Below are positions 7,342 to 53,615 of a DNA stretch of 64,000 nt, piece after piece. The translations under genes and the position numbers were made by a program. Origin of the DNA: a virus (taxonomy: Duplodnaviria; Heunggongvirae; Uroviricota; Caudoviricetes); the IMG/VR virus record IMGVR_UViG_3300037466_002980, positions 128,001 to 192,000 of that record. The stretch is one strand, 5' to 3'. The notes beneath the pieces were generated by a model. It was not told the DNA's origin, searched no databases, and saw nothing but the letters and a program-made list of their open reading frames with translations. How positions within the stretch are numbered: the first letter of the stretch is position 1; each line of letters begins with the position of its first letter.

Positions 7342-10300
7342 TTATGTTATGTCGGGAAATATCATAAACAGTTTGGGTTTATTCCTTATCATAACTTTTC
7401 CACCTAGTACTGATATATACTTCTTCGATACATTTGTTACCTCAGGTAAAGAATATTCCGAAGAAGTATATTCCCGAACATCAGAGGAGATACCATCGAG
7501 TGCATCTGCTGTTTCATCTATTGATGCAGTATCCGAAGAATATCCACATGTATCTGTTGCTATTGCAATTTCAGTCTTTGATTCGGTATATGTAACAGTT
7601 TCAAATGTTGAATCTGTTGGCACACCTATTTCGTTTATAGTTACATGATAGTTTACACTTACAGAGGAGCTATCAACTGCATTAATTGTTTCATTGATAG
7701 AAACAGATATTCCCACTGAATTACTATCGGTTGCATTTGCTGTTTCGGTAATGGATACAGAAAATTGATCATTAACAGTTACAATATCAGTTGCTGCGAC
7801 AGCTTCAATTATTGATGCAGATATTTGATCACCAGCCGATACCGCATCAACTGCTGTTACTGTTTCGATTATTGAAGTTGATGTTAATGTAGTGGCAGAA
7901 CTATTATCAATTACAGAAACAATTTCAGTTACCGTATCCGACGTAATCCAAGTTCCTGTATCTGTTTCAGTTGCTATCGTTGATTCAGTTATAGAATCAG
8001 ATAAAACATTATTTGTATTTTCAGAATCTAAAGCATTGGCTGTTTCAGTAATAGAGGCATTAGCTATCCAGGCACTAGAATTTATATCTGTAGCCGTTAC
8101 CAACTCAGTGACAGAATCAGCAGTTACCCAATTTCCAATATTGTTATCTGTTGCACTTGTGGTTTCTGTAATTTCAAGGAAAATACCTAAGATATTATCA
8201 TCTGTAGCATTTGCAGTTTCTGTTATAGATACATTTGTTATCCAATTACCTGTATCGGTTTCAGTTGCTGCACCAGTTTCTGTTATTGATGCTAAAGCAA
8301 TCCAAGTTGCGGAATCAATTTCAGTTGCAGTACCGGATTCAGATATACTTGAACTTGTTATCCAATTGCCTGTGTCGGTTTCGGTAGCAATGCTTGATTC
8401 AGTTATGCTTGAACTTGTTATCCAATTACCTATATCAGTTTCGGTTGCTGCACCAGTTTCTGTTATTGATGCTAAAGCAATCCAAGTTGCTGTATCTGTT
8501 TCAGTGGCAGTACCTGTTTCAGTTACTGATACTGATATTAAATCACCAGCCGATGTAGTATCGGTGGCCGAGACTGATTCAGTTATAGAAACTGAGGTTA
8601 TATTACCTGCTGATACCGTATCAGTTGCCGATGCAGATTCAGTTATGGTTGCTGATTCGATATCACCCGCAGATACCGTATCAGTCACTGATGCGACTTC
8701 TGTCAAGGTAACATTTGTTACCCAATTACCTACATCGGTTTCTGTAGCAGCACCTGTTTCTGTTATTGATGTTACTGCAATCCAAGTTGCAGAACCAGTT
8801 TCAGTTGCAGAACCTGTTTCTGTAATAGAAACAGATATTTGATCTCCTGCTGATACTATATCAGTTGCTGATGCAGATTCAGCTATAGAAACAGATATTT
8901 GATCTCCTGCTGATACTGTATCAGTTGCTGATACAGATTCTGCAATAGAACTTGAAGTGATATTACCTGCAGATATACTTTCAATTGCTGTGGTCGCTTC
9001 CGTAATAGAAGTCGTTGTTACATTACCAGCCGATGCTGTATCGGTTGTAGAAGCGATTTCTATAACTGAACCGCCTGCCGTCCATATAGATGATTCACTA
9101 TCAATAGCAGAGCCTGTTTCTGTAATAGAAACAGATATTTGATCTCCTGCTGATACTGTATCAGTTGCACTTGCACTTTCGGTTATGCTCGAACTTGTTA
9201 TCCAATTGCCTGTATCGGTTTCTGTAGCTGTTCCACTTTCTGTTATTGATGCTAAAGCAATCCAGGTTGCTGTATCAGTTTCGGAGGCAGTTGTAGCTTC
9301 TGTAATTGAAGCGGTGGTTAAATCACCAGCTATCACATTATCAGTTGCTGTGGTTGCTTCGGTTATAGTGGAACTGGTTATCCAATTTCCCGTATCAGTT
9401 TCGGTTGCTGTGGTTGTTTCTGTAACAGAGGCACCAACTGTCCATATAACAGAGAAGGTTTCAGTAGCGGTACCTGTTTCTGTTACCGATCCGGCTGTAA
9501 TTCGACTACCTGTATCAGTTTCAGTTGCTGATGCTGATTCAGTTATGTTCGAATTTGTTATCCAATTACCTGTATCGGTTTCGGTTGCATTAGCAGTTTC
9601 GGTTATGCTCGAACTTGTTATCCAATTGCCTGTATCTGTTTCAGTTGCTGATGCTGATTCTATCAAGGTAGCACTTGTTATCCAATTGCCTGTATCAGTT
9701 TCTGTGGCAGCACCTGTTTCTGTTATAGTTGCAGATGTAACATTGCCAGCCGATACGGTATCAATGGCAACACTCGTCTCTGTAATAGGAGCACCAATTG
9801 TCCATACAACAGAGAAGGAATCAGCTGCACTTGCTGTTTCGGTTATAATTGCTGATTCGATATCACCCGCAGATACTGTATCAGTTGCACTTGCACTTTC
9901 GGTTATGCTCGAACTTGTTATCCAATTGCCTGTATCGGTTTCTGTAGCTGTTCCACTTTCTGTTATTGAAGCTAATGCTGTCCATAATACCGATTCGCTA
10001 TCAGTGGCAGCACCTGTTTCAGTTACCGAACCAGCTGTAATTCGACTACCCGTATCTGTTTCAGTTGCTGATGCTGATTCTGTCAAGGTAGCACTTGTTA
10101 TCCAATTACCTGTATCTGTTTCTGTAGCAGTACCTGTTTCTGTTATAGTTGCCGATGTTGTCCATTTTACAGTATCAGTTTCAGTAGCTGTTCCACTTTC
10201 TGTTATTGATGCTAAAGCAATCCAAGTTGCTGTATCTGTTTCAGTGGCAGTACCTGTTTCAGTTACTGATCCAGCTGTAACTCGACTGCCTGTATCAGTT

Positions 10301-13300
10301 TCGGTTGCTGTACCTGCTTCAGTTATACTTGAATTTGTTATCCAATTCCCTGTGTTAGTTTCGGTTGCGGTACCAGATTCAGTTATGGAGGTTAATGCTG
10401 TCCATAATGCCGATTCGCTATCGGTAGCAGTACCTGTTTCAGTTACTGATCCAGCTGTAACTCGACTGCCTGTATCAGTTTCGGTTGCTGTACCTGCTTC
10501 AGTTATACTTGAATTTGTTATCCAATTCCCTGTGTTAGTTTCAGTGGCAGTACCTGTTTCAGTTACTGATGCTAAAGCAATCCAAGTGGCTGTATCTGTT
10601 TCAGTAGCAGTACCCGCTTCAGTTATGCTTGAACTTGTTATCCAATTACCTGTATCAGTTTCTGTAGCAGCACCTGTTTCTGTGATAGATGTTAATGCAA
10701 TCCAAGTTGCTGTATCGGTTTCAGTTGCAGTACCCGATTCAGTTATTGAGACTAATGCTGTCCATAATGCCGATTCGCTATCGGTGGCAGTACCTGTTTC
10801 AGTTACTGAATCCGATGCTGTCCAGGTTACCGTATCGCTATCAGTAGCAGTACCTGTTTCTGTAATAGAACTTGATGTTACATTACCAGCCGATATTGTA
10901 TCGGCCGCAGAAGCAGTTTCTGTAACTGAACCACTTTGAGCTCCTCCAGAAAAACTCCATCCTGTATTACCACTTGTATTTACGTTTCCCGACGCCAACG
11001 GTGCTGACCAAGTAGCTCCGCCGGTTGCATTGCTATCAGCGATATCAAGATATGAAACCGTATTGGTTCCCGATGCATCAGATAATGTCGCCTGTGTACC
11101 AGAAGAACTTGATCTAAGTGTGACCAGGTTTCCTACTGTTCCACTTACCGTAAATCCAGAAACGGTCGTGGTTGTAGAAGCTGGAAAAATAAATCCAGTT
11201 GGACTAACTGTGTTGGTAATATTACTAAAGGTATTCGCACCAGTAACAGTTAATGTTCCTGCTCCATCGTTAGATAATACCGGATAAGAACCTCCACCAC
11301 CTGCAAATGTTTTTGCCGAAGCACTGGTCATAGAAATTGTACCAGTGCTTCCCACTGTTAAATTGGTAGATGTAGAGGCGTCAAATACCGTACCGCTAGC
11401 GGTAACTTGCAGAACTCCGGTTGTGCCTAAAGTCAGTGCTCTAACATTACTATTACTTGTGCTGAAAATACCGCAGGAAAAGGTTTTATTATTTAAATCT
11501 ATCGTACCATTAGTTAATGTCACTGTCTTGGTAGTATCATTAGTGACATTATCTTGTAACTGCCAGGTTCCGCCTACACCATTAAATGTTATAGTCGTAT
11601 TAAGGGTAGAACCTTGTCCACTTAGGGAATGGGTGCCTGATGTTGCTGATAGGACAAATGCCCCCGAACTACACGTCATTCCTGATCCAAAAACCAAATC
11701 ACCATAGATATTTCGTGTACTTGGGTTTGTCACTGAACCAGTAAATCCAGTGAAATCTACTGTCTTGAAATTGCCTGACAGAGAAACAATGTCACTTCCT
11801 GCAGTGAAATAAAGGCTGTATGATGTTGTTTCTGTCGAAGTGGTAGCCAAACTAATTGTGCGCGTTCCAGTGGAACCAGAATAGTTCAATTCGATTCGGG
11901 GTGTTCCGGTTTGGGACGCTGAAGTCATTGAACCAGTGAGGACTGTAGCAGCGTTACCAGTAATAACAATCTTTCCTGTGGTGCCAAACGCCATTATATG
12001 CGTTCCAGAAACAGCCATTAATCCACATGACAGTGTCAAATTATTCAAATTAACTGTACCGTTTGAATGGGTAAATGTTCGGGTCGAACCCATTGTTAGG
12101 TTATCAGCCAACTGCATTGTCATCACCGAACCACCGCCATTTCCACCAGCAGCCATAGTAAGTGGAAAATCTATTAATACACCATTGGTTGTTATCACCT
12201 GTGTAGCAGTTGTTCCTTGAAATGTAGTAGTGTTCGTACCGGCAGTGTAGGTTGCTGTGGCTGACAGTGTAAGATTTCTATAAACGTTTCTAGCCACATT
12301 GGTTACAGTACCCGAAAACCCTGTGAAATCTAAATCATAAAAATGACTTGTTCCACTTGTTGTTACGGTATCAGTTCCTGCCGATATCAACACAGAAATA
12401 GATGATAATTCACTACCACCAGCCGTACCACCAATATTAAAGGTACGTGTACCTGTGGCACCAGAATAATTAGATTCGATAAGTCGTGAACCTGATACAG
12501 ATAGGTTACTTGTTGTACTCATATTAATTACTGTAGTGGCACTACCGGTTACTACAATCCTACCTGTAGTGTTAAATGCTAGAGTACGTGTGTTAGTGGT
12601 GCTACTTGAGAAAACCGAAGCAGTTAAGACTAAATTATTCAAATCAAGTGTACCTGCCGTTAAGGTTGCCGTACGTGTAGAACCTAATGTCATATTGTCG
12701 AGAAGCTGAACAATACCACCGGCACCGGTAACGTTGAACGTAACTGGAAAATCTAATGTCTTACCGTTGGTGGTAACAGTTTGTGCACCTGAAGCTGCGC
12801 CACCAAAGCTCACTGACGCTGTTCCAGAACCAAGTGTTAAACCTGTTGGAAAAGTGAAGTTCTCCCACAGGGTAAACGAGTTAGTATTGGATAAAGTTCC
12901 TGTGCAAGGTGACAAATCAATATTCTTGAAAGCACCAGCCAGCACAAGTGTATCTGAACAAGCCGATAGGTTAACATCAAGCGCATTGGCCTGCGTCAAT
13001 CCCGTACCGGTACTGCCGTGTGCAAAGGTGCGTGTACCCACAGAACCTGTGTAATTAGCCGAAACATTCATCGTTCCCGTGTAGGACCAGTTGGTCAGTC
13101 CCGCAAATGACCAGACAGTAGCGCCGTTTCCTTGCAGAACGATCGCCCCTACGGTACCAAATGCAATTACGCGCGTGACACTAACCGGTTGAGTGTTACC
13201 AAAACCACCTGCACCATCGGAAAAAGTGGTGGTGGTCAAGGTGTGACCATTTAAATCTAGTGTTCCTTGATACAGCGCACAAATTCCAGCTGTTGTGTTA

Positions 13301-15090
13301 GTGAACAGCATGTTGTCTTGCAATACAAATGTACCATTGGCCAGGCTATTAAAGAATAATGGAAAAGGAATTGTCTTGCCGTTGGTGGTGATATTTGTTG
13401 TTGTACCTATCGGGTCATGAAAACCTACCGGAAGTGAACCTGCCGTTAATGTAGCACCAGGTGCAAAAGCAAAATTGCCATTAATACGCAATGTCGTATT
13501 CAATAATGTTCCGGTAAAGGATGCCCATGTCATGTTAACAACATAGCCATTAATGGACAATGTATCACTGCCTCCATCGATTACCAACTGAATCGCTGTA
13601 GCGTCTACATTCGTAGCATTTTGTCCTGTATTGGAACTATTAAATGTGCGTGTACCAGTTGATCCGGTGTAAGTTGACTCTACTGTCGGTGTACCAGAAA
13701 TAGTAATAGTTGAACCATCAGGACAATCCCATATTGTTGCTGCATTACCAGATAGCGAGATCTTACCAGTCGTACCAAAAGTGATGCCGCGAGTATTAGA
13801 ATTATTGGATGAAAAACTAAAACACGTAAGGGTGAAATTGTTTAAGTCCAATGTACCGTTGGTTAATGTGAAAATACCTTGTGTTGCTGAGGAGGTGAGT
13901 GTTACATTACTTAGAAGTTGTGTCGTGCCTCCTACACCTGTATCGGTAATCGGAAACGTGAGTGTCTTGTTCGAACTAAGTGTCTGGGTACCGGACGTTG
14001 CTGCCATAGTTAAAGCAGTGGTGGTTGAAGGCAACGTCATAGCCGATGAACCACCACTGATTTCAAAGTTACCATAGATACTCAAAGGAAAACCAGTAGT
14101 GGAACCTGTAAAGCCCTGGAAACGCAAATCATAAATGAACGAACCTGTGGTAATCGTGAACGCATAAGTTCCAGCTAAAAGACTGAAACTCATAGAATTT
14201 GCTTCACTGCCACCGGTAGTGCCATGTGTCACAGTAATTCCAACGCTACCCGAAGAAGTTAACTGCACTGTTGGTGTTCCAGTACGTGTAAATCCTGTTG
14301 CCACGGCCGCCGACCATACCGTACCAGTACCCGACAAGGAAATCTTACCCGTGCCAAAATTGATGCTGCGTGTGGTGCTATTGCTGCTGGAAAAAACCGA
14401 GCCGGTGAGCGTGAAGGTAGACAACGCAATTGTACCGGCTGACAGCGTTATTGTACCGGTCGACTTCAAGTCACTAAGTAACGTGAAAGTTCCTGCTGTG
14501 CCGTTGAAGGTGATCGGCGAAGCAAGAGAGACTCCTTGAGCATCAATAGTAGCCGAACCTGTGGAACTGAAGGTCAATGCCACAGTGTTAGACCACGTAA
14601 AACCCGTTGCTGGAATGGCGAAGTTACCCGACACGGTGAGTGAGTTCGATCCCGCAAAAGTCATAGCCTGCGATAATCCACTGGCAGTGAAATTAATAAT
14701 TGTACGGGTGGTACCTAACGTTACTGTGAATGCTGTGGTACCGATACCTGAATTTGCATCAAAAATAACGTTATCAGTGGTTGTTGGAACAGAAGCAGCA
14801 CCTGTCCATGCAGAACAGGTAGTAGAGGACTGTGTAACGTTGGAACTCATGTTGTACGTACCGGTACCACCTGTACCCGTACCAAAAGAGCTAATGGTAC
14901 CTAAGTTGCTACCACCAGAAGTCATAACTGTCATGCCGACAGCCAGTGTGCCCGAGGCCACCGCAGTGACAGTTAGCACTCTGCTAGATGCTGAACCTGT
15001 TAACTGAACCGCTGTGGCTGCGGCCGACCAGTTAACAGTGTTGGTGCTGGAAAAGCTTCCGGTTCCTCCGCGCCAATATCTATCTGCCAT
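7342..15090 (-). CDS. Giant (2582 aa) Gly/Thr/Ser-rich fibre or adhesin-like virion protein
   Basis: N-terminal beta-helix-like repeats (LTxGTLDLNxxTL...GTRT); C-terminal 20-aa tandem repeats. Confidence 0.75.
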   Translation of the reverse strand: MADRYWRGGTGSFSSTNTVNWSAAATAVQLTGSASSRVLTVTAVASGTLAVGMTVMTSGGSNLGTISSFGTGTGGTGTYNMSSNVTQSSTTCSAWTGAASVPTTTDNVIFDANSGIGTTAFTVTLGTTRTIINFTASGLSQAMTFAGSNSLTVSGNFAIPATGFTWSNTVALTFSSTGSATIDAQGVSLASPITFNGTAGTFTLLSDLKSTGTITLSAGTIALSTFTLTGSVFSSSNSTTRSINFGTGKISLSGTGTVWSAAVATGFTRTGTPTVQLTSSGSVGITVTHGTTGGSEANSMSFSLLAGTYAFTITTGSFIYDLRFQGFTGSTTGFPLSIYGNFEISGGSSAMTLPSTTTALTMAATSGTQTLSSNKTLTFPITDTGVGGTTQLLSNVTLTSSATQGIFTLTNGTLDLNNFTLTCFSFSSNNSNTRGITFGTTGKISLSGNAATIWDCPDGSTITISGTPTVESTYTGSTGTRTFNSSNTGQNATNVDATAIQLVIDGGSDTLSINGYVVNMTWASFTGTLLNTTLRINGNFAFAPGATLTAGSLPVGFHDPIGTTTNITTNGKTIPFPLFFNSLANGTFVLQDNMLFTNTTAGICALYQGTLDLNGHTLTTTTFSDGAGGFGNTQPVSVTRVIAFGTVGAIVLQGNGATVWSFAGLTNWSYTGTMNVSANYTGSVGTRTFAHGSTGTGLTQANALDVNLSACSDTLVLAGAFKNIDLSPCTGTLSNTNSFTLWENFTFPTGLTLGSGTASVSFGGAASGAQTVTTNGKTLDFPVTFNVTGAGGIVQLLDNMTLGSTRTATLTAGTLDLNNLVLTASVFSSSTTNTRTLAFNTTGRIVVTGSATTVINMSTTSNLSVSGSRLIESNYSGATGTRTFNIGGTAGGSELSSISVLISAGTDTVTTSGTSHFYDLDFTGFSGTVTNVARNVYRNLTLSATATYTAGTNTTTFQGTTATQVITTNGVLIDFPLTMAAGGNGGGSVMTMQLADNLTMGSTRTFTHSNGTVNLNNLTLSCGLMAVSGTHIMAFGTTGKIVITGNAATVLTGSMTSASQTGTPRIELNYSGSTGTRTISLATTSTETTSYSLYFTAGSDIVSLSGNFKTVDFTGFTGSVTNPSTRNIYGDLVFGSGMTCSSGAFVLSATSGTHSLSGQGSTLNTTITFNGVGGTWQLQDNVTNDTTKTVTLTNGTIDLNNKTFSCGIFSTSNSNVRALTLGTTGVLQVTASGTVFDASTSTNLTVGSTGTISMTSASAKTFAGGGGSYPVLSNDGAGTLTVTGANTFSNITNTVSPTGFIFPASTTTTVSGFTVSGTVGNLVTLRSSSSGTQATLSDASGTNTVSYLDIADSNATGGATWSAPLASGNVNTSGNTGWSFSGGAQSGSVTETASAADTISAGNVTSSSITETGTATDSDTVTWTASDSVTETGTATDSESALWTALVSITESGTATETDTATWIALTSITETGAATETDTGNWITSSSITEAGTATETDTATWIALASVTETGTATETNTGNWITNSSITEAGTATETDTGSRVTAGSVTETGTATDSESALWTALTSITESGTATETNTGNWITNSSITEAGTATETDTGSRVTAGSVTETGTATETDTATWIALASITESGTATETDTVKWTTSATITETGTATETDTGNWITSATLTESASATETDTGSRITAGSVTETGAATDSESVLWTALASITESGTATETDTGNWITSSSITESASATDTVSAGDIESAIITETASAADSFSVVWTIGAPITETSVAIDTVSAGNVTSATITETGAATETDTGNWITSATLIESASATETDTGNWITSSSITETANATETDTGNWITNSNITESASATETDTGSRITAGSVTETGTATETFSVIWTVGASVTETTTATETDTGNWITSSTITEATTATDNVIAGDLTTASITEATTASETDTATWIALASITESGTATETDTGNWITSSSITESASATDTVSAGDQISVSITETGSAIDSESSIWTAGGSVIEIASTTDTASAGNVTTTSITEATTAIESISAGNITSSSIAESVSATDTVSAGDQISVSIAESASATDIVSAGDQISVSITETGSATETGSATWIAVTSITETGAATETDVGNWVTNVTLTEVASVTDTVSAGDIESATITESASATDTVSAGNITSVSITESVSATDTTSAGDLISVSVTETGTATETDTATWIALASITETGAATETDIGNWITSSSITESSIATETDTGNWITSSSISESGTATEIDSATWIALASITETGAATETDTGNWITNVSITETANATDDNILGIFLEITETTSATDNNIGNWVTADSVTELVTATDINSSAWIANASITETANALDSENTNNVLSDSITESTIATETDTGTWITSDTVTEIVSVIDNSSATTLTSTSIIETVTAVDAVSAGDQISASIIEAVAATDIVTVNDQFSVSITETANATDSNSVGISVSINETINAVDSSSVSVNYHVTINEIGVPTDSTFETVTYTESKTEIAIATDTCGYSSDTASIDETADALDGISSDVREYTSSEYSLPEVTNVSKKYISVLGGKVMIRNKPKLFMIFPDIT
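7560..10930 (-). repeat. Degenerate 60-nt (20 aa) coding tandem repeat, roughly 55 units
   Basis: Consensus SITETGTATETDTGNWITSS; 10261-10320 is identical to 10441-10500. Confidence 0.9.
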
Positions 15091-29383: not shown

Positions 29384-29460
29384 TGGCGCCCTGTGCGGGA
29401 CTCGAACCCGCAGCAACAAGGTGTTAGAAGCCTCCACTCTACCAATTGAGTTAACAGGGC
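29384..29460 (-). tRNA. tRNA, best register gives anticodon CTA (amber suppressor candidate; alternative TCT/Arg)
   Basis: Perfect acceptor, D and T arms; anticodon arm GAGGC-TTCTAAC-ACCTT; GCCA end. Confidence 0.6.
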
Positions 29461-31782: not shown

Positions 31783-32445
31783 ATGAGAGCACATGAATTT
31801 ATCAATGAAGATTGGAAACAAAATTTAGCCAGCATCGGTACAGGCGCTGCATTGGCGTTTGGTGGAACTAATGGAATAAATCAAAAAGAAGTTGTTCCTA
31901 TTGCACCAAAACAGGTATCAACTAAACCTACCGTGACAGATAATTCTAATCCTGCGTCAATTTTAAAAAAATTCGCTCTTAAGGCTGGTATAACCGGTAA
32001 GGAATTATCAGCATTAATGTCCCAAGCGGCACATGAAACTTTAGATTTTACCAGAATGATCGAACATGGTTCTAAATCATATTTCCAGAAATATGAAACT
32101 CCAAAAATGGCTAAAGTCTTGGGAAACACAGATAAGAAAGGTAACGTTATTCACGGTGCTGGTGAAAAATTTAAGGGTAGAAGTTTTCTTCAAATCACCG
32201 GAAAATATAATTACGAGTTGATCGGTAAAGAACTAGGTATTCCGTTGGGAGAACATCCAGAAATGCTCGAAGATCCGAAAATCGGAGCAATGGCATCAAT
32301 TTGGTATTGGAAGCATAGAGTAGCACCGAAAATTAATAATTTCGGCGATATAAGAAAAGTAACATATCAGATTAATCCTGGTTTGGCAGGTCTTGCTTCT
32401 AGAGAGAAAAAATTTCAAGCATATAATAATTCAAGAGACTTATAA
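31783..32445 (+). CDS. Glycoside hydrolase family 19 (chitinase/lysozyme-like) protein
   Basis: MSQAAHET, FKGRSFLQITGKYNY, WYW, VT-x2-INPG. Confidence 0.85.
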   Translation: MRAHEFINEDWKQNLASIGTGAALAFGGTNGINQKEVVPIAPKQVSTKPTVTDNSNPASILKKFALKAGITGKELSALMSQAAHETLDFTRMIEHGSKSYFQKYETPKMAKVLGNTDKKGNVIHGAGEKFKGRSFLQITGKYNYELIGKELGIPLGEHPEMLEDPKIGAMASIWYWKHRVAPKINNFGDIRKVTYQINPGLAGLASREKKFQAYNNSRDL

Positions 32446-32469
32446 AAATAGGACCCGAAGGTCCTATTT
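32444..32469. terminator. Terminator at the end of the tmRNA coding piece (also after GH19 gene)
   Basis: Minus strand AAATAGGAC-CTTCGG-GTCCTATTTTT with a UUCG loop. Confidence 0.85.
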
Positions 32470-32638
32470 GGTTATTGAGTAATAAGGTTACCAACCCCAC
32501 TTCACTTCATCACTGTTTAAGCAGCGAGAGCGAAGACAGCGTCATTTGCTGCGTTTATAGTTTTGCTTGATTTACGATCATCGCCTATCGTGTTGTCCAT
32601 TCCCTTACTATTGACCCTGTCGAAACCTTGACTGGCCC
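32470..32638 (-). ncRNA. ssrA: tmRNA coding piece (two-piece permuted tmRNA)
   Basis: 5' GGGCCAG...GGTTTCGAC; tag frame 32552-32517 encodes AANDAVFALAA*. Confidence 0.9.
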
Positions 32639-32639
32639 A

Positions 32640-32837
32640 TCATAAGAAAATTTGATCACCTTGTTTATCACAAAGCATTGTGTAAAAATCCCCAGGTCCG
32701 CCTACATATTTAAACATCCACATGCCCTGATTTGCTTCTCGTTCGGTACGAACTAAGATAATCTTTTCAGTAAACTTAGCACCTTGCAATACAGGTAATA
32801 TGTCTCCGGTCTGGGTTTTTACATAAATCTTCATCAA
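32640..32837 (-). CDS. 65 aa ORF filling the tmRNA intervening segment
   Basis: AAGGA SD right after the CCA; stop lies 1 nt before the coding-piece 5' end. Confidence 0.55.
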   Translation of the reverse strand: MMKIYVKTQTGDILPVLQGAKFTEKIILVRTEREANQGMWMFKYVGGPGDFYTMLCDKQGDQIFL

Positions 32838-32846
32838 ACTTCCTTA

Positions 32847-32910
32847 TGGTGGACCAGGCGGGAGTCGAACCCGCGTCCAGAACCCGTTTCTGTTCACTTC
32901 ATACAACAAT
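32847..32910 (-). ncRNA. ssrA: tmRNA acceptor piece
   Basis: GGAC-GCGGG-TTCGACT-CCCGC-CTGGTCC-ACCA; pairs with GGGCCAG to give G3:U70. Confidence 0.9.
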
Positions 32911-32929
32911 AATTTTTATTATATATTAC

Positions 32930-33598
32930 TTACCATAATAAATCAAAATTACCACGCATCACCTTTTCAACACTAGATGATTTTCCGCTGTTATGATCTT
33001 TAACCATATCATCTTGAAAACGATAGGTTCTTATTTTATCACCTCGCATACCAGATCCAACCTGTTCTTTTCTTATTGCGGTAAGCTCCTTAACTTTTTC
33101 ATATCTATCTTCTAATATTAATCTTTCGATTAATGAACTTTTAGCATCGTCGAGGCTATTTGTTCTAGATCTACTTTGAGAAACTGAAACCTTGCCAGTC
33201 GGTATATGAGTAATACGACAGGAATTTTGATGTTTGTTTCTATGTTGTCCGCCGGCACCAGTTCCACTAAACCATTCAATCTTAAAATCCTCATCTTTAA
33301 TTTCAAGACATTGAATTTCTGGATCAATTACAGCCACGGTAACAGTACTGGTATGAACTCGACCTTTTCGTTCGGTTGGTGGAATGCGCTGAATTCTATG
33401 TCCTCCGCATTCATTATTAAGCATAATTAAATCATTACCACGAACTTCAATAAAAATTTCTCCGGGTACCTGTTTAATTATACGATTAATTCAGCCAACT
33501 CTATCAAAATGTTTTTGATATGCTCTAGCCAGGTCGGCTGCGAATAATTTGCTATCCTCACCACCTTCGGCCGCACGAATTTCAATAATTCTCTTCAT
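32930..33598 (-). CDS. prfA: RF1-type class I release factor lacking domain 1, with in-frame TGA at codon 36
   Basis: AGGAG SD and ATG at 33598; IEIRAAEGGEDS, TGA at 33493-33491, then same frame HRIQRIPPTE, VHTST, GAGGQH, KIRTY. Confidence 0.85.
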
Positions 33599-34832: not shown

Positions 34833-34867
34833 AAAAAAAAAGACTATGGAGAAAACCCCATAGTCTT
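34833..34867 (-). terminator. Intrinsic terminator after tRNA-Arg(ACG)
   Basis: AAGACTATGG...CCATAGTCTTTTTTTTT on the minus strand. Confidence 0.8.
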
Positions 34868-41063: not shown

Positions 41064-41970
41064 AGGACTGAGATTACATCCTTACTGATCGGTACCTCGT
41101 ATATTATTTCAATATCTTGCGGGATATTGATTCTTACGATATCCACTAGGTCTGTTTTCACAGTATCCTAGTCTACCGACAACATCGCCTTTTAAAGTCA
41201 GGCAGTAGACTTGACATGATATTCTACTCTATAATTTCCATTCCGTCTGCCTTGCGAGCAGTTCATTGGTGCTAACCAATTACGAAACATCTATTATAAA
41301 TCAACTTGGCCTTGCGAGCTTTCGTCGAACTTAGTTACCTTACGGTCTAAGTATTAGATGTCTTTCAAATATCACCGAGGCAGTCTTTGCATTTTAATAC
41401 ACGGTTGGAATCGAACCAACTGCTTTCTGTTAGGATACAGACACTCTACCAAATGAGTTACATTGCAACCTACTATGATGTGCTACCTCAGCTGCTATAT
41501 ACCTTGTTAGATACACAATACAGCACACCACGTATCTTTCATCTCGCGGATTACTCGATTGTCTTTCACGATATATGTCAAGAGTCTCGGCGTTTTCGCG
41601 TATCTTGCCATTTACCATTCAAACTGCATTCAAGCCCTTACTTGCGAGGTTCGGACAAGAACACTACCCTTTCTCATACCAATTAACAAATTGGTTTATT
41701 GTGAGGTCAGCACCACCTGTTACTCTCCGCCAACTAACGTTCCCTTTCGGCGTTTAAGTTGGCGTTCTTTCCACAACATTTGCTTTATTGTTACTTCGTC
41801 CGGTCTTATCAGACAAAGCTCCCTCACGGGAGTGAGCAGGCCTGCTTAATGATCCATTACTGGCGGTAGTATGTAGGCTTCCTACCTTTTTCACTCCTTG
41901 CGGAGATCCTTCTTCAATAACCAGCTGGGCGAACCATACTGGTTATTAGGGGTTCAAGCTCCCCGAAATT
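41064..41970 (-). ncRNA. GOLLD-like large ncRNA (about 900 nt)
   Basis: Many GNRA-capped hairpins (GCAA, GAAA, GTAA), internal GAGTAACAGGTGGTGCTG, 3' GGATGTAATCTCAGTCC, inside a phage tRNA cluster; family assignment is from recall and 5' boundary is approximate. Confidence 0.65.
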
Positions 41971-45770: not shown

Positions 45771-45799
45771 ATTCTAAATTATTTCAGAATGATTGTCAA
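45771..45799 (-). promoter_or_regulatory. sigma70-type promoter inside the tRNA array
   Basis: TTGACA-17 nt-TAGAAT. Confidence 0.7.
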
Positions 45800-48734: not shown

Positions 48735-48808
48735 TGGTGCGGGTACCGGGAATCGAACTCGAGACTTCTGTTTGGAAGACAAATGTTATACCACTTAACT
48801 ATACACGC
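48735..48808 (-). tRNA. tRNA-Gly(TCC), A73
   Basis: Loop CTTCCAA. Confidence 0.85.
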
Positions 48809-49139
48809 ATTAATTTAGAATGTCAACTATGATTAATTTGCTTTCTTTCGCCACCTATTCCGTCGAAACGGTTTGGACTTACACCATGCTGATAGGCTAT
48901 TGCATTATTGCCGGAAGAATTTGAACCATTATCCTGAGCGAAATACTCTGTCGATAGTAATCAGCTATCCTAGCAAATCAAAAAATAATTATAGTCACAT
49001 GGAAGATTTGATATCATGGCGTCCCAAGTATCATCACATTACCACTTACGTCTTCACTATGTAGAACTTCTCCAACACGTAGAGCTTCACACATAGGAGT
49101 AGAACCATATGACTCACTAGGAGCTACCTAATAGAAAAC

Positions 49140-49342: not shown

Positions 49343-49418
49343 TGGTAGGGGCACTGGGACTCGAACCCAAGAACTCACGGTTTAAGAGACCGGTACGTTA
49401 CCATTACGCCATACCCCC
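49343..49418 (-). tRNA. tRNA-Lys(CTT)
   Basis: Loop CTCTTAA. Confidence 0.9.
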
Positions 49419-49488
49419 AAATCGAAATAGCGGCTTTCAAGACCGGTTTCAATAAATTTTGCAAATTTAATATATTTCGATCAAAAAT

Positions 49489-49567
49489 TGGCGTCCCTAC
49501 GGGGATTCGAACCCACGCTTTTTACCTTGAAAGGGTAACGTCCTCAAACCATATAGACGATAGAGAC
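49489..49567 (-). tRNA. tRNA-Glu(TTC)
   Basis: TTACC-CTTTCAA-GGTAA. Confidence 0.9.
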
Positions 49568-49578
49568 AAGAAAAATAT

Positions 49579-49653
49579 TGGCATCCCGTAGGGGTTTCGA
49601 TCCTTCTCATTAGTTTGAAGGACTAACGGCCACGGCCAGCTGCCTCACGGGAT
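49579..49653 (-). tRNA. tRNA-Glu(TTC), atypical (C33)
   Basis: TTAGT-CCTTCAA-ACTAA, GCCA. Confidence 0.65.
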
Positions 49654-49654
49654 A

Positions 49655-49954
49655 TTAAGGAATATAATCGAAAGGTCTATGATACTGATCTTTTCGATTA
49701 TCCATATAATTCATTATAAAAATTTGTGGAATTATGTGCATTCCTGGATCAAGTCGAAGTTTGAAAAATTCTAAACAGTCGTTCTCTTTTAATTCAACCT
49801 CAAAAATATTTCCATCAAAAATTCTAGCCAGAGAGTTATATCGAAATTCTATTTTCTTAACACCTAATCTTATTCTTGTTTTTTCGTAATCCGGCCAGTC
49901 ATCGGCGGGATAATTAACCGAAATTTCAATACCGATATATAAAATTCTAGACAT
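49655..49954 (-). CDS. Hypothetical protein (F-x-L-K/R family)
   Basis: ENDCLEFFKLRL. Confidence 0.55.
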   Translation of the reverse strand: MSRILYIGIEISVNYPADDWPDYEKTRIRLGVKKIEFRYNSLARIFDGNIFEVELKENDCLEFFKLRLDPGMHIIPQIFIMNYMDNRKDQYHRPFDYIP

Positions 49955-49968
49955 GGTTGAATTATTAA

Positions 49969-50043
49969 TGGTGCTCCCGAAAGGAATCGAACCTTACGTC
50001 TTCGCGTTATCAGCACGCTGCTCTGCCATTGAGCTACAGGAGC
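49969..50043 (-). tRNA. tRNA-Ile(GAT)
   Basis: Loop CTGATAA. Confidence 0.93.
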
Positions 50044-50058
50044 AAAATTAAAATAGGA

Positions 50059-50196
50059 CAGGATCACTTTTTACGTTGCTCTACCAAACTGAGCTATTGC
50101 TTCGTTAAATGTAACAAAAATACACTTAACGAAGCAAGTGGGATTTGAACCCACGACCTACGGCTTGACATGCTAATGATTGCTGCAGGGATCCTT
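50059..50196 (-). ncRNA. CAGCA-stem module 7 with circularly permuted tRNA domain (YrlA-like)
   Basis: AGGATC-CCTGCAGCAA, T arm GTGGG-TTCAAAT-CCCAC, closed acceptor TTGCTTCGTTAA/TTAACGAAGCAA, D arm GCTC-AGTTTGGTA-GAGC, GATCCT-G. Confidence 0.8.
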
Positions 50197-50203
50197 TAAA
50201 AAC

Positions 50204-50278
50204 TGGTCAGGGAGCACAGAATCGAACTGTGTCTACGAGGCTCCAAAGCTCGGCGGCTAACCATTACCATACACCCTG
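50204..50278 (-). tRNA. tRNA-Pro(TGG)
   Basis: Loop TTTGGAG, C1:G72, A73. Confidence 0.85.
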
Positions 50279-50375
50279 AAAAACTTTGGTAGATTATATA
50301 CGCCATCATACCGGGGCAATTATCTAATGTAATAATGCAGATTGGAATAGGAAGTCTTTCTATATTACATCTAAC

Positions 50376-50453
50376 TGGAGCTCCCAGAAGGAATCAAACC
50401 TTCATCCACGGACTACAAAACCGTTATAATCTAATCCATTATACTATAGGAGC
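50376..50453 (-). tRNA. tRNA-Thr(TGT)
   Basis: Loop TTTGTAG, CCA. Confidence 0.8.
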
Positions 50454-50460
50454 AAAAAGT

Positions 50461-50536
50461 TGGCGCCGCCAAGGAGGATCGAACTCCTACTACAACCGTG
50501 ACAGGGTCGCGTGCAGTACCACTACACTATGGCGGC
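50461..50536 (-). tRNA. tRNA-Asp(GTC)
   Basis: Loop CTGTCAC, G73. Confidence 0.92.
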
Positions 50537-50712
50537 AAATTGGTCTAGGTATCCAGTATATTTCTATAGTAACCAGGTAACCCAGATGAAATTAGACAAG
50601 CTTCACACTTGATTGAACGTTCCATTCGCTTACTGCAACGTCTAAGCTTCGCTCGGTTTCTCTCGCGCCTTTAACATTCTAGCAAGCGCGGCTATGTACA
50701 CAGAGAGAAATT

Positions 50713-50788
50713 TGGTGGACCAGGAGGGAATCGAACCCTACTTACAATTTCCTTGCAAGGGAAACCAGTAACCCCATTACTCAAGCCC
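50713..50788 (-). tRNA. tRNA-Ala(TGC)
   Basis: G3:U70, loop CTTGCAA. Confidence 0.85.
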
Positions 50789-50795
50789 ATAATTC

Positions 50796-50880
50796 TGGTG
50801 GAGTAGCTAGGAATCGAACCTAGATGATCAGTGATGACAGTTTTACAGACTGCCCCGCCTCCATAACGGTCTACTACTCC
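50796..50880 (-). tRNA. tRNA-Tyr(GTA)
   Basis: Loop CTGTAAA, long variable arm. Confidence 0.92.
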
Positions 50881-51085
50881 AAAACACTCTTTCGAATGTT
50901 GATATTAAAATACACCATTTTTGATATATTTTAATATCCTAGATTTTTACCACCTACGTTATCTCCATAGGCTTCTCATCTTCTAGTACGCCCTCATTAA
51001 TAGCTAGATGTTTTTACGGTGCCTGGCAGGATCGCGTTTCCTATACACACCGTCCATAATACGTCCTTAGACTTAACATGGAAAT

Positions 51086-51114
51086 AAAAAAGCCGCTTAG
51101 TTTCCTAGCGGCTT
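51086..51114 (-). terminator. Intrinsic terminator (attenuator) upstream of the tRNA array
   Basis: AAGCCGCTAG-GAAA-CTAAGCGGC-TTTTTT. Confidence 0.85.
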
Positions 51115-51174
51115 CCTTATATAAACTTTCTAGATTTACTTTATGTATTTCTAGTCTCCTTATATAAGGAAGCC
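51110..51174 (-). promoter_or_regulatory. Antiterminator hairpin
   Basis: Perfect 15-bp GGCTTCCTTATATAA/TTATATAAGGAAGCC stem plus inner CTAGA/TCTAG; 3' arm overlaps the terminator 5' arm. Confidence 0.75.
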
Positions 51175-51290
51175 TTGGTAGGGTTTTGTTCAATCTCTGT
51201 ACTATTACCTGCCCAATAAAATCCACAGAGATGCATACGATCTAACATCGCATCTACTGTCGGTTTATTAAAACGGTTAATGTAATTCAT
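51141..51290 (-). CDS. Putative 49-aa attenuator leader peptide (below the ORF-track cutoff)
   Basis: AGGA SD; MNYINRFNKPTVDAMLDRMHLCGFYWAGNSTEIEQNPTKASLYKETRNT*. Confidence 0.7.
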   Translation of the reverse strand: MNYINRFNKPTVDAMLDRMHLCGFYWAGNSTEIEQNPTKASLYKETRNT

Positions 51291-51349
51291 TTTATTCCTA
51301 AAAACTCTCTACTGCACAGACCCATTCTATGCAATGTTTATTTATCTCA

Positions 51350-51378
51350 ATTGTAGCAAACGTTTTAATCTACGTCAA
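51350..51378 (-). promoter_or_regulatory. sigma70-type promoter for the leader and tRNA array
   Basis: TTGACG-17 nt-TACAAT; a GATAAATA late motif follows at 51339-51346. Confidence 0.75.
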
Positions 51379-51712
51379 CTATATCAAGATGATTTACAAT
51401 TAATTCTGGCTACTTAAAAGTTATAGAAAATCTGCTAAGTTACAACGGTTATCTTCTGTAAACAGATATATATTCGCCTTCAATTTTATTTATCATCGAC
51501 GATTTTACACATACTTAATATAGGTGTCAAATCGCATCTTTTATTGTTTTAGATAGGTGCCGATCCACTATCAATTTATATCGGATGTTAAGTTTTCTTC
51601 TATTCATCACCATAAAACAATATCGCAATTATATATAATTAATTCAGTGTGTCAAGTGGTTTATCAATTTCCAATATTTATCAATGTGATAAATAATAGA
51701 AAATGAGGTAAT

Positions 51713-52369
51713 ATGAATAATTTCTATGTGTATGCTTATATCCGAAGTAAAGATAGCAAAACTGCGAAAGCAGGCACACCATATTATATTGGAAAAGGAA
51801 CTGAAAATCGAAGGTTTCGAAAACATGTCAACATATCAATACCTAACAAAAATTTTATTCTTATAATTGAAAATGATCTTACTGAAATTGGTGCATTAGC
51901 TATAGAACGTAGATTAATTAAATGGTGGGGAAGAAAGAATACAGGAACAGGCATTCTTCTAAATAGAACAGATGGTGGTGAAGGAATCTCTGGTTATAAG
52001 CATACAGAAAATGCTAAAAATAGAATCGGTCAGGCATCTATAGGCAGAAATAAGGGACCAAAAATACTCTCAAACGAAACAAAAAGAAAAATATCGACTT
52101 CATTGAAAGGAAAGAAAAAGCCACCAAGGACAAAAGAACATGCTTTGAAAATATCAGAAGCACTCAAAGGAAAAATTTGCAATGACCTCGAAATTGAACA
52201 ACTAAACAAAATGGTTGAAAAAATTAAGGTTCCTGTTCAAATCTTCGGAAAACAATATTCATCGATAACCGAAGCATCCTTGGCCTTAAATATACATCAT
52301 GAAACGATAAGATATAGATTAAAATCCAAAAATTATCCAGAATATATACAAGAGAAAAAAAATGCCTAG
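51713..52369 (+). CDS. GIY-YIG homing endonuclease-like protein with NUMOD3 repeats
   Basis: YVYAY...YYIGKG...R, E-x2-LI, LLNRTDGGEG, ETKRKIS repeats. Confidence 0.85.
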   Translation: MNNFYVYAYIRSKDSKTAKAGTPYYIGKGTENRRFRKHVNISIPNKNFILIIENDLTEIGALAIERRLIKWWGRKNTGTGILLNRTDGGEGISGYKHTENAKNRIGQASIGRNKGPKILSNETKRKISTSLKGKKKPPRTKEHALKISEALKGKICNDLEIEQLNKMVEKIKVPVQIFGKQYSSITEASLALNIHHETIRYRLKSKNYPEYIQEKKNA

Positions 52370-53615
52370 AATATCCTTATGGAATCCTCAAAAAACAAAT
52401 GATTATAATTTCATCGATAAAACAATCGGTGAAAATTTCAGAATTGCTGGATTAGGAATTCTTGTTCATATGTATCAAGGTCCTACAACTGATTCAAACG
52501 GAAACACAAATACATCTTTAACAACCATTCAAGATGTTCTTTTCCTACAAAACAACAATAGAAAATATGATCCAAACGTTATTGAATTAAAGGGTCATTA
52601 CACTCCGCAAGATGTTAATTTTGATTTATCACAATTTGGAGTCTTCTTAAGTTCTGATGTTATCCGAATCCAATTTCATTTTAATGATATGATAGATGCA
52701 TTAGGAAGAAAACTCATTGCAGGTGATGTCTTAGAACTACCAAATATGTTTGATACTCCTATTTTCGATAATGCCGTTGGAATTAATCAATATTATGTTA
52801 TTCAGGATGCATTATATGCTGCTGGAGGCTATGGCCAAAAATGGTATCCACACTTATGGTTGGTAAGAGCAAAACTTCTACAAGCATCTCCGGAATACAA
52901 AGAAATCCTTAATCAAGCATCAACAGGACAAACTGCTGGTGGTGCAGGTCAAAGTATTGGAATTATGCCAGAGGGATTTACAGATACAACAGATTCAAAT
53001 GGAAATCCAGGTATAGGAGAAAATCCGAATATTACGAATTCATTAAACTTGTTCTGCCAAATTATTGGTCTCACTGATGAAATTATCAAAGAAGCTGAGT
53101 GCAATGCATTTTTTGATCCTAAATTCTTTGAGAGTGCAAATTTATATATATACATTGATTCAAACACCGGTTATCCAGTAATCGGAAGTAATTATTTCAG
53201 TGGTGACGGTGCACCACCTAATTATTCTACCGACCTAAATGATGATCTAGTTCCTAGTGGACCATTGGTTGGTGCAGGCATTAGTTTTCCGACCGATATG
53301 CAAGATGGACAATATTATTTAAGAATTGATTATTATCCAGAAAGATTATTTCAAAAGCAAGGAAATTGTTTTAAATTAATTGAGGTAAACGTTTTGAAAA
53401 ATTGGACTGCATACAACAGAGTATTGGATACATTTATCGATAATATCAATGATACAACTCTTTCAGATGGAACTGTTGTTCCAGAAAAACAAGCTGTTTC
53501 GACAATTGTTAAACAGAAGGTTGATCTGTATGCTGAGAGAAAGAAACAAACAACCGATAACGAAGCTGCTAGATCTAAGATTGCCGATGATAGAGCTGCC
53601 AATCGCGGTTATTAA
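52362..53615 (+). CDS. Neck/head-closure protein (T4 gp14-like)
   Basis: IQDVLFLQNNNRKYD, LSQFG, GDVLELP; adjacent to the gp15-like gene. Confidence 0.65.
   Translation: MPRISLWNPQKTNDYNFIDKTIGENFRIAGLGILVHMYQGPTTDSNGNTNTSLTTIQDVLFLQNNNRKYDPNVIELKGHYTPQDVNFDLSQFGVFLSSDVIRIQFHFNDMIDALGRKLIAGDVLELPNMFDTPIFDNAVGINQYYVIQDALYAAGGYGQKWYPHLWLVRAKLLQASPEYKEILNQASTGQTAGGAGQSIGIMPEGFTDTTDSNGNPGIGENPNITNSLNLFCQIIGLTDEIIKEAECNAFFDPKFFESANLYIYIDSNTGYPVIGSNYFSGDGAPPNYSTDLNDDLVPSGPLVGAGISFPTDMQDGQYYLRIDYYPERLFQKQGNCFKLIEVNVLKNWTAYNRVLDTFIDNINDTTLSDGTVVPEKQAVSTIVKQKVDLYAERKKQTTDNEAARSKIADDRAANRGY

Follow-up and report, generated by a model that had tools for sequence, protein, structure and literature searches.

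In the attenuators of the amino-acid operons (trpL, hisL, pheL, leuL, thrL and ilvL/ivbL), a short promoter-proximal ORF is translated, and a terminator lies before the regulated genes. The antiterminator shares a segment with this terminator, the position of the ribosome decides which helix is formed, and the stop codon is located within the switch. The phage leader described here has the same arrangement. However, the leaders of amino-acid operons carry one to three regulatory amino acids in runs, whereas the phage leader contains every amino acid, mostly once or a few times, ahead of the antiterminator arm, and shows no enrichment in codons of particular amino acids, the feature by which a leader is assigned to the attenuators. 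A sequence-only reading of this DNA had already drawn this contrast, noting trp/his/thr-type geometry without an enrichment in one to three amino acids, and it is borne out here. Further, amino-acid operon attenuators control biosynthetic enzymes, whereas the phage-borne leader precedes tRNA genes. Only two competing helices are evident in it, and the absence of translation should give read-through rather than the super-attenuation of trp; since no clear, conserved pause or protector helix is evident, unlike in trp, a start-codon mutant should read through.

Other attenuators respond to the state of translation in different ways. In pyrBI and pyrE, a ribosome following closely behind RNA polymerase blocks the terminator, and read-through results. 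As in these systems, the outcome at the phage leader would be set by how closely the lead ribosome trails the polymerase, but in the opposite sense, a close-following ribosome being expected to favour termination. The bmrB-bmrCD and ermK attenuators sense translation inhibition through a leader ORF. Leader-ORF attenuators sensing drug-stalled ribosomes have also been described for vmlR (PMC9226507) and yxjB (PMC6851288). In all four, as proposed for the phage leader, stalling at any upstream point of a short leader ORF favours formation of the antiterminator and switches on the downstream genes, and it is the state of translation rather than one metabolite that is sensed. They differ in that the drug stalls ribosomes at particular motifs and that resistance genes are controlled, and none has been reported with a complete amino-acid set or with tRNA genes as target. 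T-box riboswitches likewise couple tRNA charging to terminator read-through via an antiterminator, but they bind one specific uncharged tRNA directly, without translation, and the phage leader matches no T-box.

The window, that is, the whole stretch of 64,000 nucleotides that was analysed, corresponds to bases 128001-192000 of a single contig of 362,810 bp with 36% G+C, and its DNA occurs in metagenomes (DNA assemblies) from soil and rhizosphere. A virion protein encoded at 52362-53615 shares 40% identity with Pseudomonas phage PA5oct and 35% with Agrobacterium phage Atu_ph07, which identifies the phage as a jumbo phage of that broad group. The minus strand of the window carries 43 tRNA genes covering all 20 amino acids, together with a permuted tmRNA and a GOLLD RNA (Table 1). 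All 43 tRNA genes are located downstream of the leader terminator and on the leader strand, the first one, tRNA-Tyr, starting 209 nt downstream. The terminator at 34867-34840, the sole strong minus-strand terminator within the array past the leader, is probably the end of a long tRNA/ncRNA transcription unit. One of the tRNAs has a CUA anticodon, with read-through of TAG or recoding of some phage genes as a possibility; the leader ORFs themselves end with TAA in most cases. A homing-endonuclease gene is present between the leader promoters and the virion gene, and a very large ORF is found further along the minus strand.

Table 1. Features of the leader element, the tRNA array and their surroundings, numbered from the first base of the window.
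Feature	Position	Strand	Remarks
Homing-endonuclease gene (NUMOD3/NUMOD1, phrog_314)	51713..52369	+	
Distal sigma-70-like promoter, TTGACA-16-TATAAT	51628..51655	-	12/12; promoter scan
Middle sigma-70-like promoter, TTGACA-17-TAAAAT	51502..51530	-	11/12; region also matched in relatives by blastn
Proximal promoter-like site, TTGACG-17-TACAAT	51350..51378	-	TG-extended
Shine-Dalgarno (SD) AGGA	51296..51299	-	5 nt 5' of ATG; GGA or AGGA at same place in relatives
Leader ORF	51141..51290	-	49 codons + TAA; 20th residue type reached at codon 35
Antiterminator hairpin, 5' arm, GGCTTCCTTATATAA	51160..51174	-	codons 39-44
Inner 5-bp stem and apical loop	51130..51154	-	51154-51150 paired with 51134-51130
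Antiterminator hairpin, 3' arm	51110..51124	-	perfect 15-nt complement of 5' arm
Intrinsic terminator	51086..51114	-	G+C-rich 8-bp stem, 9-nt loop, T6
Structured spacer between terminator and tRNA-Tyr	50878..51085	-	208 nt; fold z-score -5.9
First tRNA block (Tyr, Ala, Asp, Thr, Pro, Ile, Glu, Lys)	49343..50877	-	no strong promoter separating block from terminator
First strong internal promoter, TTGACA-17-TATAGT	48798..48826	-	11/12
GOLLD RNA, full-length, inside tRNA array	41065..41531	-	Rfam RF02032, 198.9 bits
Intrinsic terminator	34840..34867	-	12-bp stem + T7; just 3' of tRNA-Arg(ACG)
Permuted (two-piece type) tmRNA gene	32426..32939	-	ARAGORN; Rfam RF04321, 122 bits
tRNA with CUA anticodon (amber suppressor)	29384..29460	-	ARAGORN label 'Pyl'
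Very large ORF	7342..15090	-	2,582 aa

With regard to the leader element itself, the sequence-only reading had described the proximal promoter, a peptide with all 20 residue types by residue 35, a perfect 15-bp pairing of codons 39-44 with a segment overlapping the 5' arm of a terminator, and a stop codon in the apical loop of the resulting hairpin. All of these parts are present at the positions listed in Table 1, the TAA stop at 51143-51141 falling within the apical loop of the long hairpin. The 49-codon ORF and its SD are there as well, but the ORF had been thought to be missed by the ORF listing, in which it does appear. The distal and middle promoters, which form a tandem, are stronger than the proximal site. 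The two helices meet at AAGCC (51114-51110), which makes up both the last 5 nt of the antiterminator 3' arm and the base of the terminator 5' arm; GGCTT starts both the hairpin 5' arm and the terminator 3' arm, and both copies compete for AAGCC. Beyond the terminator, the spacer displays conserved blocks and paired segments in 15 relatives; among its helices are a long closing one rich in A/T and a hairpin enclosed by GTGTG...GCAC. No Rfam family was matched by this spacer, which may represent an undescribed RNA or a precursor-processing module.

Relatives were collected by three routes. The neighbouring virion protein, used as query, retrieved 80 IMG/VR loci, 5 of which aligned to the leader region; further viral and metagenome loci came from scanning DNA for patterns of the terminator and of the hairpin arms, and filtering for complete leaders (an ORF with its stop in the hairpin loop, followed by a T-tract) left 41 distinct loci. 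A profile search of 1.84 billion protein cluster representatives yielded 68 family members with mutual identity of 50% or less. Altogether, the combination of leader ORF, long hairpin, terminator and downstream tRNA array recurs in more than 100 distinct metagenomic phage sequences. The leader peptides of the family comprise 42-66 residues and share only 27-41% identity with the window peptide. Their N-terminal half diverges almost freely, the usual motifs are absent from the L093/L169 and L098/L149/L158/L170/L187 subfamilies, and one divergent subfamily has a hydrophobic N-terminus. In three relatives (L135, L160 and L204), a 12-nt unit encoding C-A-G-Y is present three times in tandem inside the ORF, and all 20 amino acids are retained.

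The surroundings of the leader are more constant. Every locus of sufficient length carries tRNA genes downstream on the leader strand; the first of them usually lies 120-370 nt past the T-tract and is most frequently tRNA-Tyr. Nearly all relatives possess one to three TTGACA-type promoters in tandem, 30-210 nt upstream of the leader ATG; their spacing is often about 92 nt, which suggests a duplicated promoter module. Some relatives (L298, L301 and L302) have a T5orf172-type endonuclease gene inserted immediately 3' of the leader terminator, where it would share regulation with the tRNAs.

The family has so far been found only in uncultured jumbo phages from soil, sediment and freshwater. Among 185,579 prokaryote species genomes scanned for the DNA pattern, no member was found, only chance hits lacking the combination of ORF and terminator, and blastn and tblastn searches with the region and the peptide against 50,697 GenBank phage records gave no usable match. 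There is no paralog of the leader within this phage genome. The 49-residue product matches no family in Pfam and none in PHROG, and comparison of the leader with Rfam gave nothing at the gathering score or at a relaxed E-value, the hits being at chance level (for example Phe_leader, 17 bits against a cutoff of 55 bits).

The leader frame is open in all 41 complete loci and in the 68 representatives, its indels occur in multiples of three, and the start codon and SD are retained in all complete members. The Pro in alignment column 67 is 97% conserved as a residue but 57% at its third codon position. The same pattern is seen in several Ala and Gly columns and in the conserved residues G-Y-W and Q-D-P, whose third positions are free. 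Conservation of the amino acid with a variable third position is a coding signature, and the leader ORF can be regarded, from these alignments, as translated and under coding constraint. The situation is different inside the hairpin arm, where the codons Ala GCT, Ser TCC and Lys AAG are invariant at every position in the 41 sequences, which points to a constraint on the RNA. In three variants (L112, L139 and P0051), from at least three independent contigs, a 1-nt frameshift just 5' of the hairpin arm causes the arm to be read in another frame, with a different C-terminal peptide as result; the RNA is nevertheless retained, the ORF stays open and the stop is still inside the hairpin loop. The frameshifted L139 peptide still contains all 20 amino acids. 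Among the relatives, the leader stop invariably falls within the loop, 28-34 nt upstream of the terminator.

Covariation was observed in both helices. In the antiterminator, 92% of the alignment cells are paired (51 sequences) and compensatory double changes occur at 9 of the 15 outer pairs; none of 500 shuffles matches this pairing, which is far poorer in any shifted register. Covariation includes the inner stem, where CTGG/CCAG is replaced by CTAG/CTAG. In the terminator, 98% of cells are paired (40 sequences), with compensatory changes at 3 pairs. At the shared segment, covariation extends to three strands: L297 carries A instead of the shared G, accompanied by a change of C to T in both competing strands, and in L295 and L298 a T replaces the shared C, with its hairpin partner changed to A and a G-U pair on the terminator side. 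These are among eight loci found by the protein profile and not by a DNA pattern, and they therefore provide an independent test of the helix model. A C/A mismatch is conserved in the hairpin of most relatives. On the whole leader, RNAalifold favoured local mini-hairpins and an extended terminator over the long hairpin, and for this reason the latter was assessed by explicit pair counts instead of the RNAalifold consensus. Most members also have hairpins inside the ORF, at no fixed place; one of them, which pairs the V-G-F with the Q-D-P-I codons, is absent from the window. Judged by their covariation, both predicted helices exist and compete for one shared segment.

The completeness of the amino-acid set was examined against several expectations. 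The sequence-only reading had proposed computing how often a 35-mer drawn from the amino-acid usage of this phage contains all 20 types, and the probability is about 0.0011. Genome-wide, one of 2,557 ORFs of at least 35 residues reaches all 20 types within 35 residues, where about 2-3 are expected, and the next-shortest prefixes with the full set measure 37, 38 and 39. In this genome alone, the observation is thus not beyond chance; the pattern across the family is. All 20 amino acids are present in the 41 peptides from complete loci, in 58 of the 68 representatives and in 95 of the 105 distinct peptides of 45-66 residues. For the representatives, the expected number is 2.4 +/- 1.6 under the composition of the phage proteome, 3.9 +/- 1.9 under that of the family itself, and 18.9 +/- 3.2, with a maximum of 30, in 2,000 shuffles within alignment columns; as rates, random composition gives about 4-6% and column shuffling about 28% of complete peptides, against about 90% observed. 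When shuffling was restricted to 50 close clades, 74.8 +/- 3.0 complete peptides were expected among the 105, and none of 500 shuffles reached 95.

A stall sensor would require all 20 types to be placed before the 5' arm, and in 93 of the 105 peptides the set is complete before the first codon of this arm. Rare residues shift position instead of disappearing. L092 has C-L-R in place of the R-L-C motif; L085 has His in place of the usual Arg and carries Arg at another position; the window peptide lacks the usual Asp and Phe positions and has both residues elsewhere; and in the L098/L149 subfamily, Trp and Cys occupy positions different from those of other members. About 10% of members are without one or two amino acids, some of them coming from truncated or low-coverage contigs. 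In 34 of the 105 peptides, the only Ile is at most 3 codons from the arm, and a ribosome stalled there may partly cover it. With regard to codons, both boxes are covered for Leu and for Ser in 38 of 41 leaders each, which is probably a mere result of residue counts; Arg AGR codons are rarely sampled, and many isoacceptor classes are not. Given that Arg AGR is seldom covered, the leader appears to sample amino-acid types rather than all isoacceptors. The shuffles and the relocated residues indicate selection for a full amino-acid set located ahead of the arm.

In the window, the folding energies are -28.4 kcal/mol for the long hairpin and -13.7 kcal/mol for the terminator, and it is the hairpin, not the terminator, that is present in the minimum-free-energy fold of the full leader. 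The effect of a ribosome was modelled by masking a 27-nt footprint at successive positions, followed by equilibrium folding. With the mask at P-site codons 0-30, the full antiterminator is formed with at most 3 terminator pairs; codon 35 is borderline, 14 of the 15 antiterminator pairs being formed along with 4 of the 8 in the terminator; once the mask reaches codons 38-44, none of the 15 antiterminator pairs is left and all 8 terminator pairs are present. The predicted switch boundary thus lies at about codons 35-38, which coincides with completion of the amino-acid set at codon 35. With a ribosome on the stop codon, both arms are outside the footprint and the hairpin re-forms in the model, so that termination would need tight timing or steric exclusion. 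This masked folding switches cleanly in the window, but for many relatives the predicted states are noisy. For 16 of the 41 relatives, the terminator is already formed at minimum free energy in naked full-length RNA, at the cost of 4-5 bp of the hairpin, which implies that the switch would have to be kinetic and co-transcriptional, as in classical attenuators. The two helices compete over 5 nt only and are nearly iso-energetic.

Taken together, the element is probably a ribosome-mediated transcription attenuator, in which an ORF containing all 20 amino acids serves as a test track: it would detect when any aminoacyl-tRNA runs short and control at least the first tRNA block. This is the attenuator that the sequence-only reading had proposed, and it gains support from the conservation or covariation of promoter, translated leader, coverage before the arm, competing helices and tRNA array in more than 100 relatives; the look upstream of tRNA arrays in related phages which that reading had suggested turned up the divergent short ORFs with complete coverage and covarying stems that it anticipated. 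In the proposed mechanism, host-type promoters would start the transcript and the leader would be translated at once. A lead ribosome keeping pace would be at about codons 37-49 when the 3' arm emerges and would block the long hairpin, so that the shared AAGCC is left to pair with the downstream strand, completing the terminator and ending transcription ahead of the tRNA genes. Were the ribosome held at an earlier codon by scarcity of any aminoacyl-tRNA, or had no ribosome been loaded, the free 5' arm would capture the 3' arm first, leaving the terminator stem incomplete and letting the polymerase enter the structured spacer and the tRNA array. As every amino acid has a tRNA in the array, the circuit would be a negative feedback on decoding capacity. 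We infer from the sequences the direction of the switch, its kinetics, and a shortage of tRNA or amino acid as its natural signal.

The placement of the element is constant, between strong promoters and the tRNA array, and in the window no strong promoter is present between 51086 and tRNA-Tyr. Besides the internal promoter at 48826 (Table 1), further strong ones start at 45799 and 42345 on the minus strand. As a consequence, only about 8 tRNAs would be strictly gated by read-through, and the remainder would gain added transcription; the caveat, raised from the sequence alone, that only the first block may be controlled is in line with these promoters.

The same architecture of hairpin and terminator would be found in a general gauge of translation-transcription coupling or of ribosome availability, responding to antibiotics or a global slowdown, for which the 20 amino acids merely make the track representative of average decoding speed. 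Such a gauge is an unlikely reading, but it accommodates the unsampled Arg AGR codons and isoacceptor classes as well as the fine balance of the helices, which any delay would flip. It needs no complete set, yet coverage is about 90% as against about 28% in the column shuffles, and single copies of rare residues (Trp, Cys and His) are kept and relocated.

Two further explanations make the completeness of the peptide or its translation incidental. That a small functional phage protein happens to be encoded upstream of the array, next to an ordinary terminator, with the long hairpin stabilising the 3' end of the mRNA, would fit the conserved G-Y-W and Q-D-P with free third positions and the hydrophobic N-terminus of one divergent subfamily. 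We find this improbable, as the peptide has no Pfam or PHROG match, its N-terminal half is almost unconstrained except for coverage, its C-terminal tail is conserved as RNA and replaced in the frameshifted variants, and neither the selection for all 20 types before the arm nor the three-way covariation would be explained. Conversely, the length and perfection of the hairpin, the conserved structured spacer that follows it and the need of tRNA precursors for processing would suit an RNA element acting independently of translation at the 5' end of the tRNA precursor, either an RNase III or other processing site or a protein-bound switch, with an incidental ORF. This is highly improbable in view of the ORF, start codon and SD in all complete members, the triplet indels and the coding signature, and of the constant location of the stop in the loop, 28-34 nt upstream of the terminator, and the coverage under selection.

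Returning to the attenuator that senses all 20 amino acids, the sequence-only reading knew of no such arrangement, and our full-text literature search likewise turned up neither an all-amino-acid leader nor a phage tRNA array controlled by attenuation. Current ideas on phage tRNAs are that they compensate for codon usage or that they replace tRNAs destroyed by host defences (PMC10264068, PMC11555353). In connection with the latter, the leader might serve counter-defence as an alarm for failure of any tRNA: depletion of tRNAs by an anticodon nuclease, a tRNA-targeting immune effector or phage-induced decay of host RNA would stall the lead ribosome, let the antiterminator form and bring out a complete set of replacement tRNAs, with self-shut-off once decoding recovers. 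We put this forward tentatively, and the link of the leader to anticodon nucleases or defence is speculation.

It has long been asked why phages have large or complete tRNA sets and how these are controlled, a question which would become directly testable by simple reporter and in vitro assays if a sensor of all 20 amino acids gates the tRNA array. If true, leader-peptide attenuation would be extended from single metabolites to the whole alphabet of translation, with selection on which residues a peptide contains rather than on their order, in a family that is large (68 clusters at 50% identity or less). The counter-defence alarm, if it exists, would give phage tRNA arrays their first described regulatory logic, and would also be the first attenuator under selection for sampling every amino acid.
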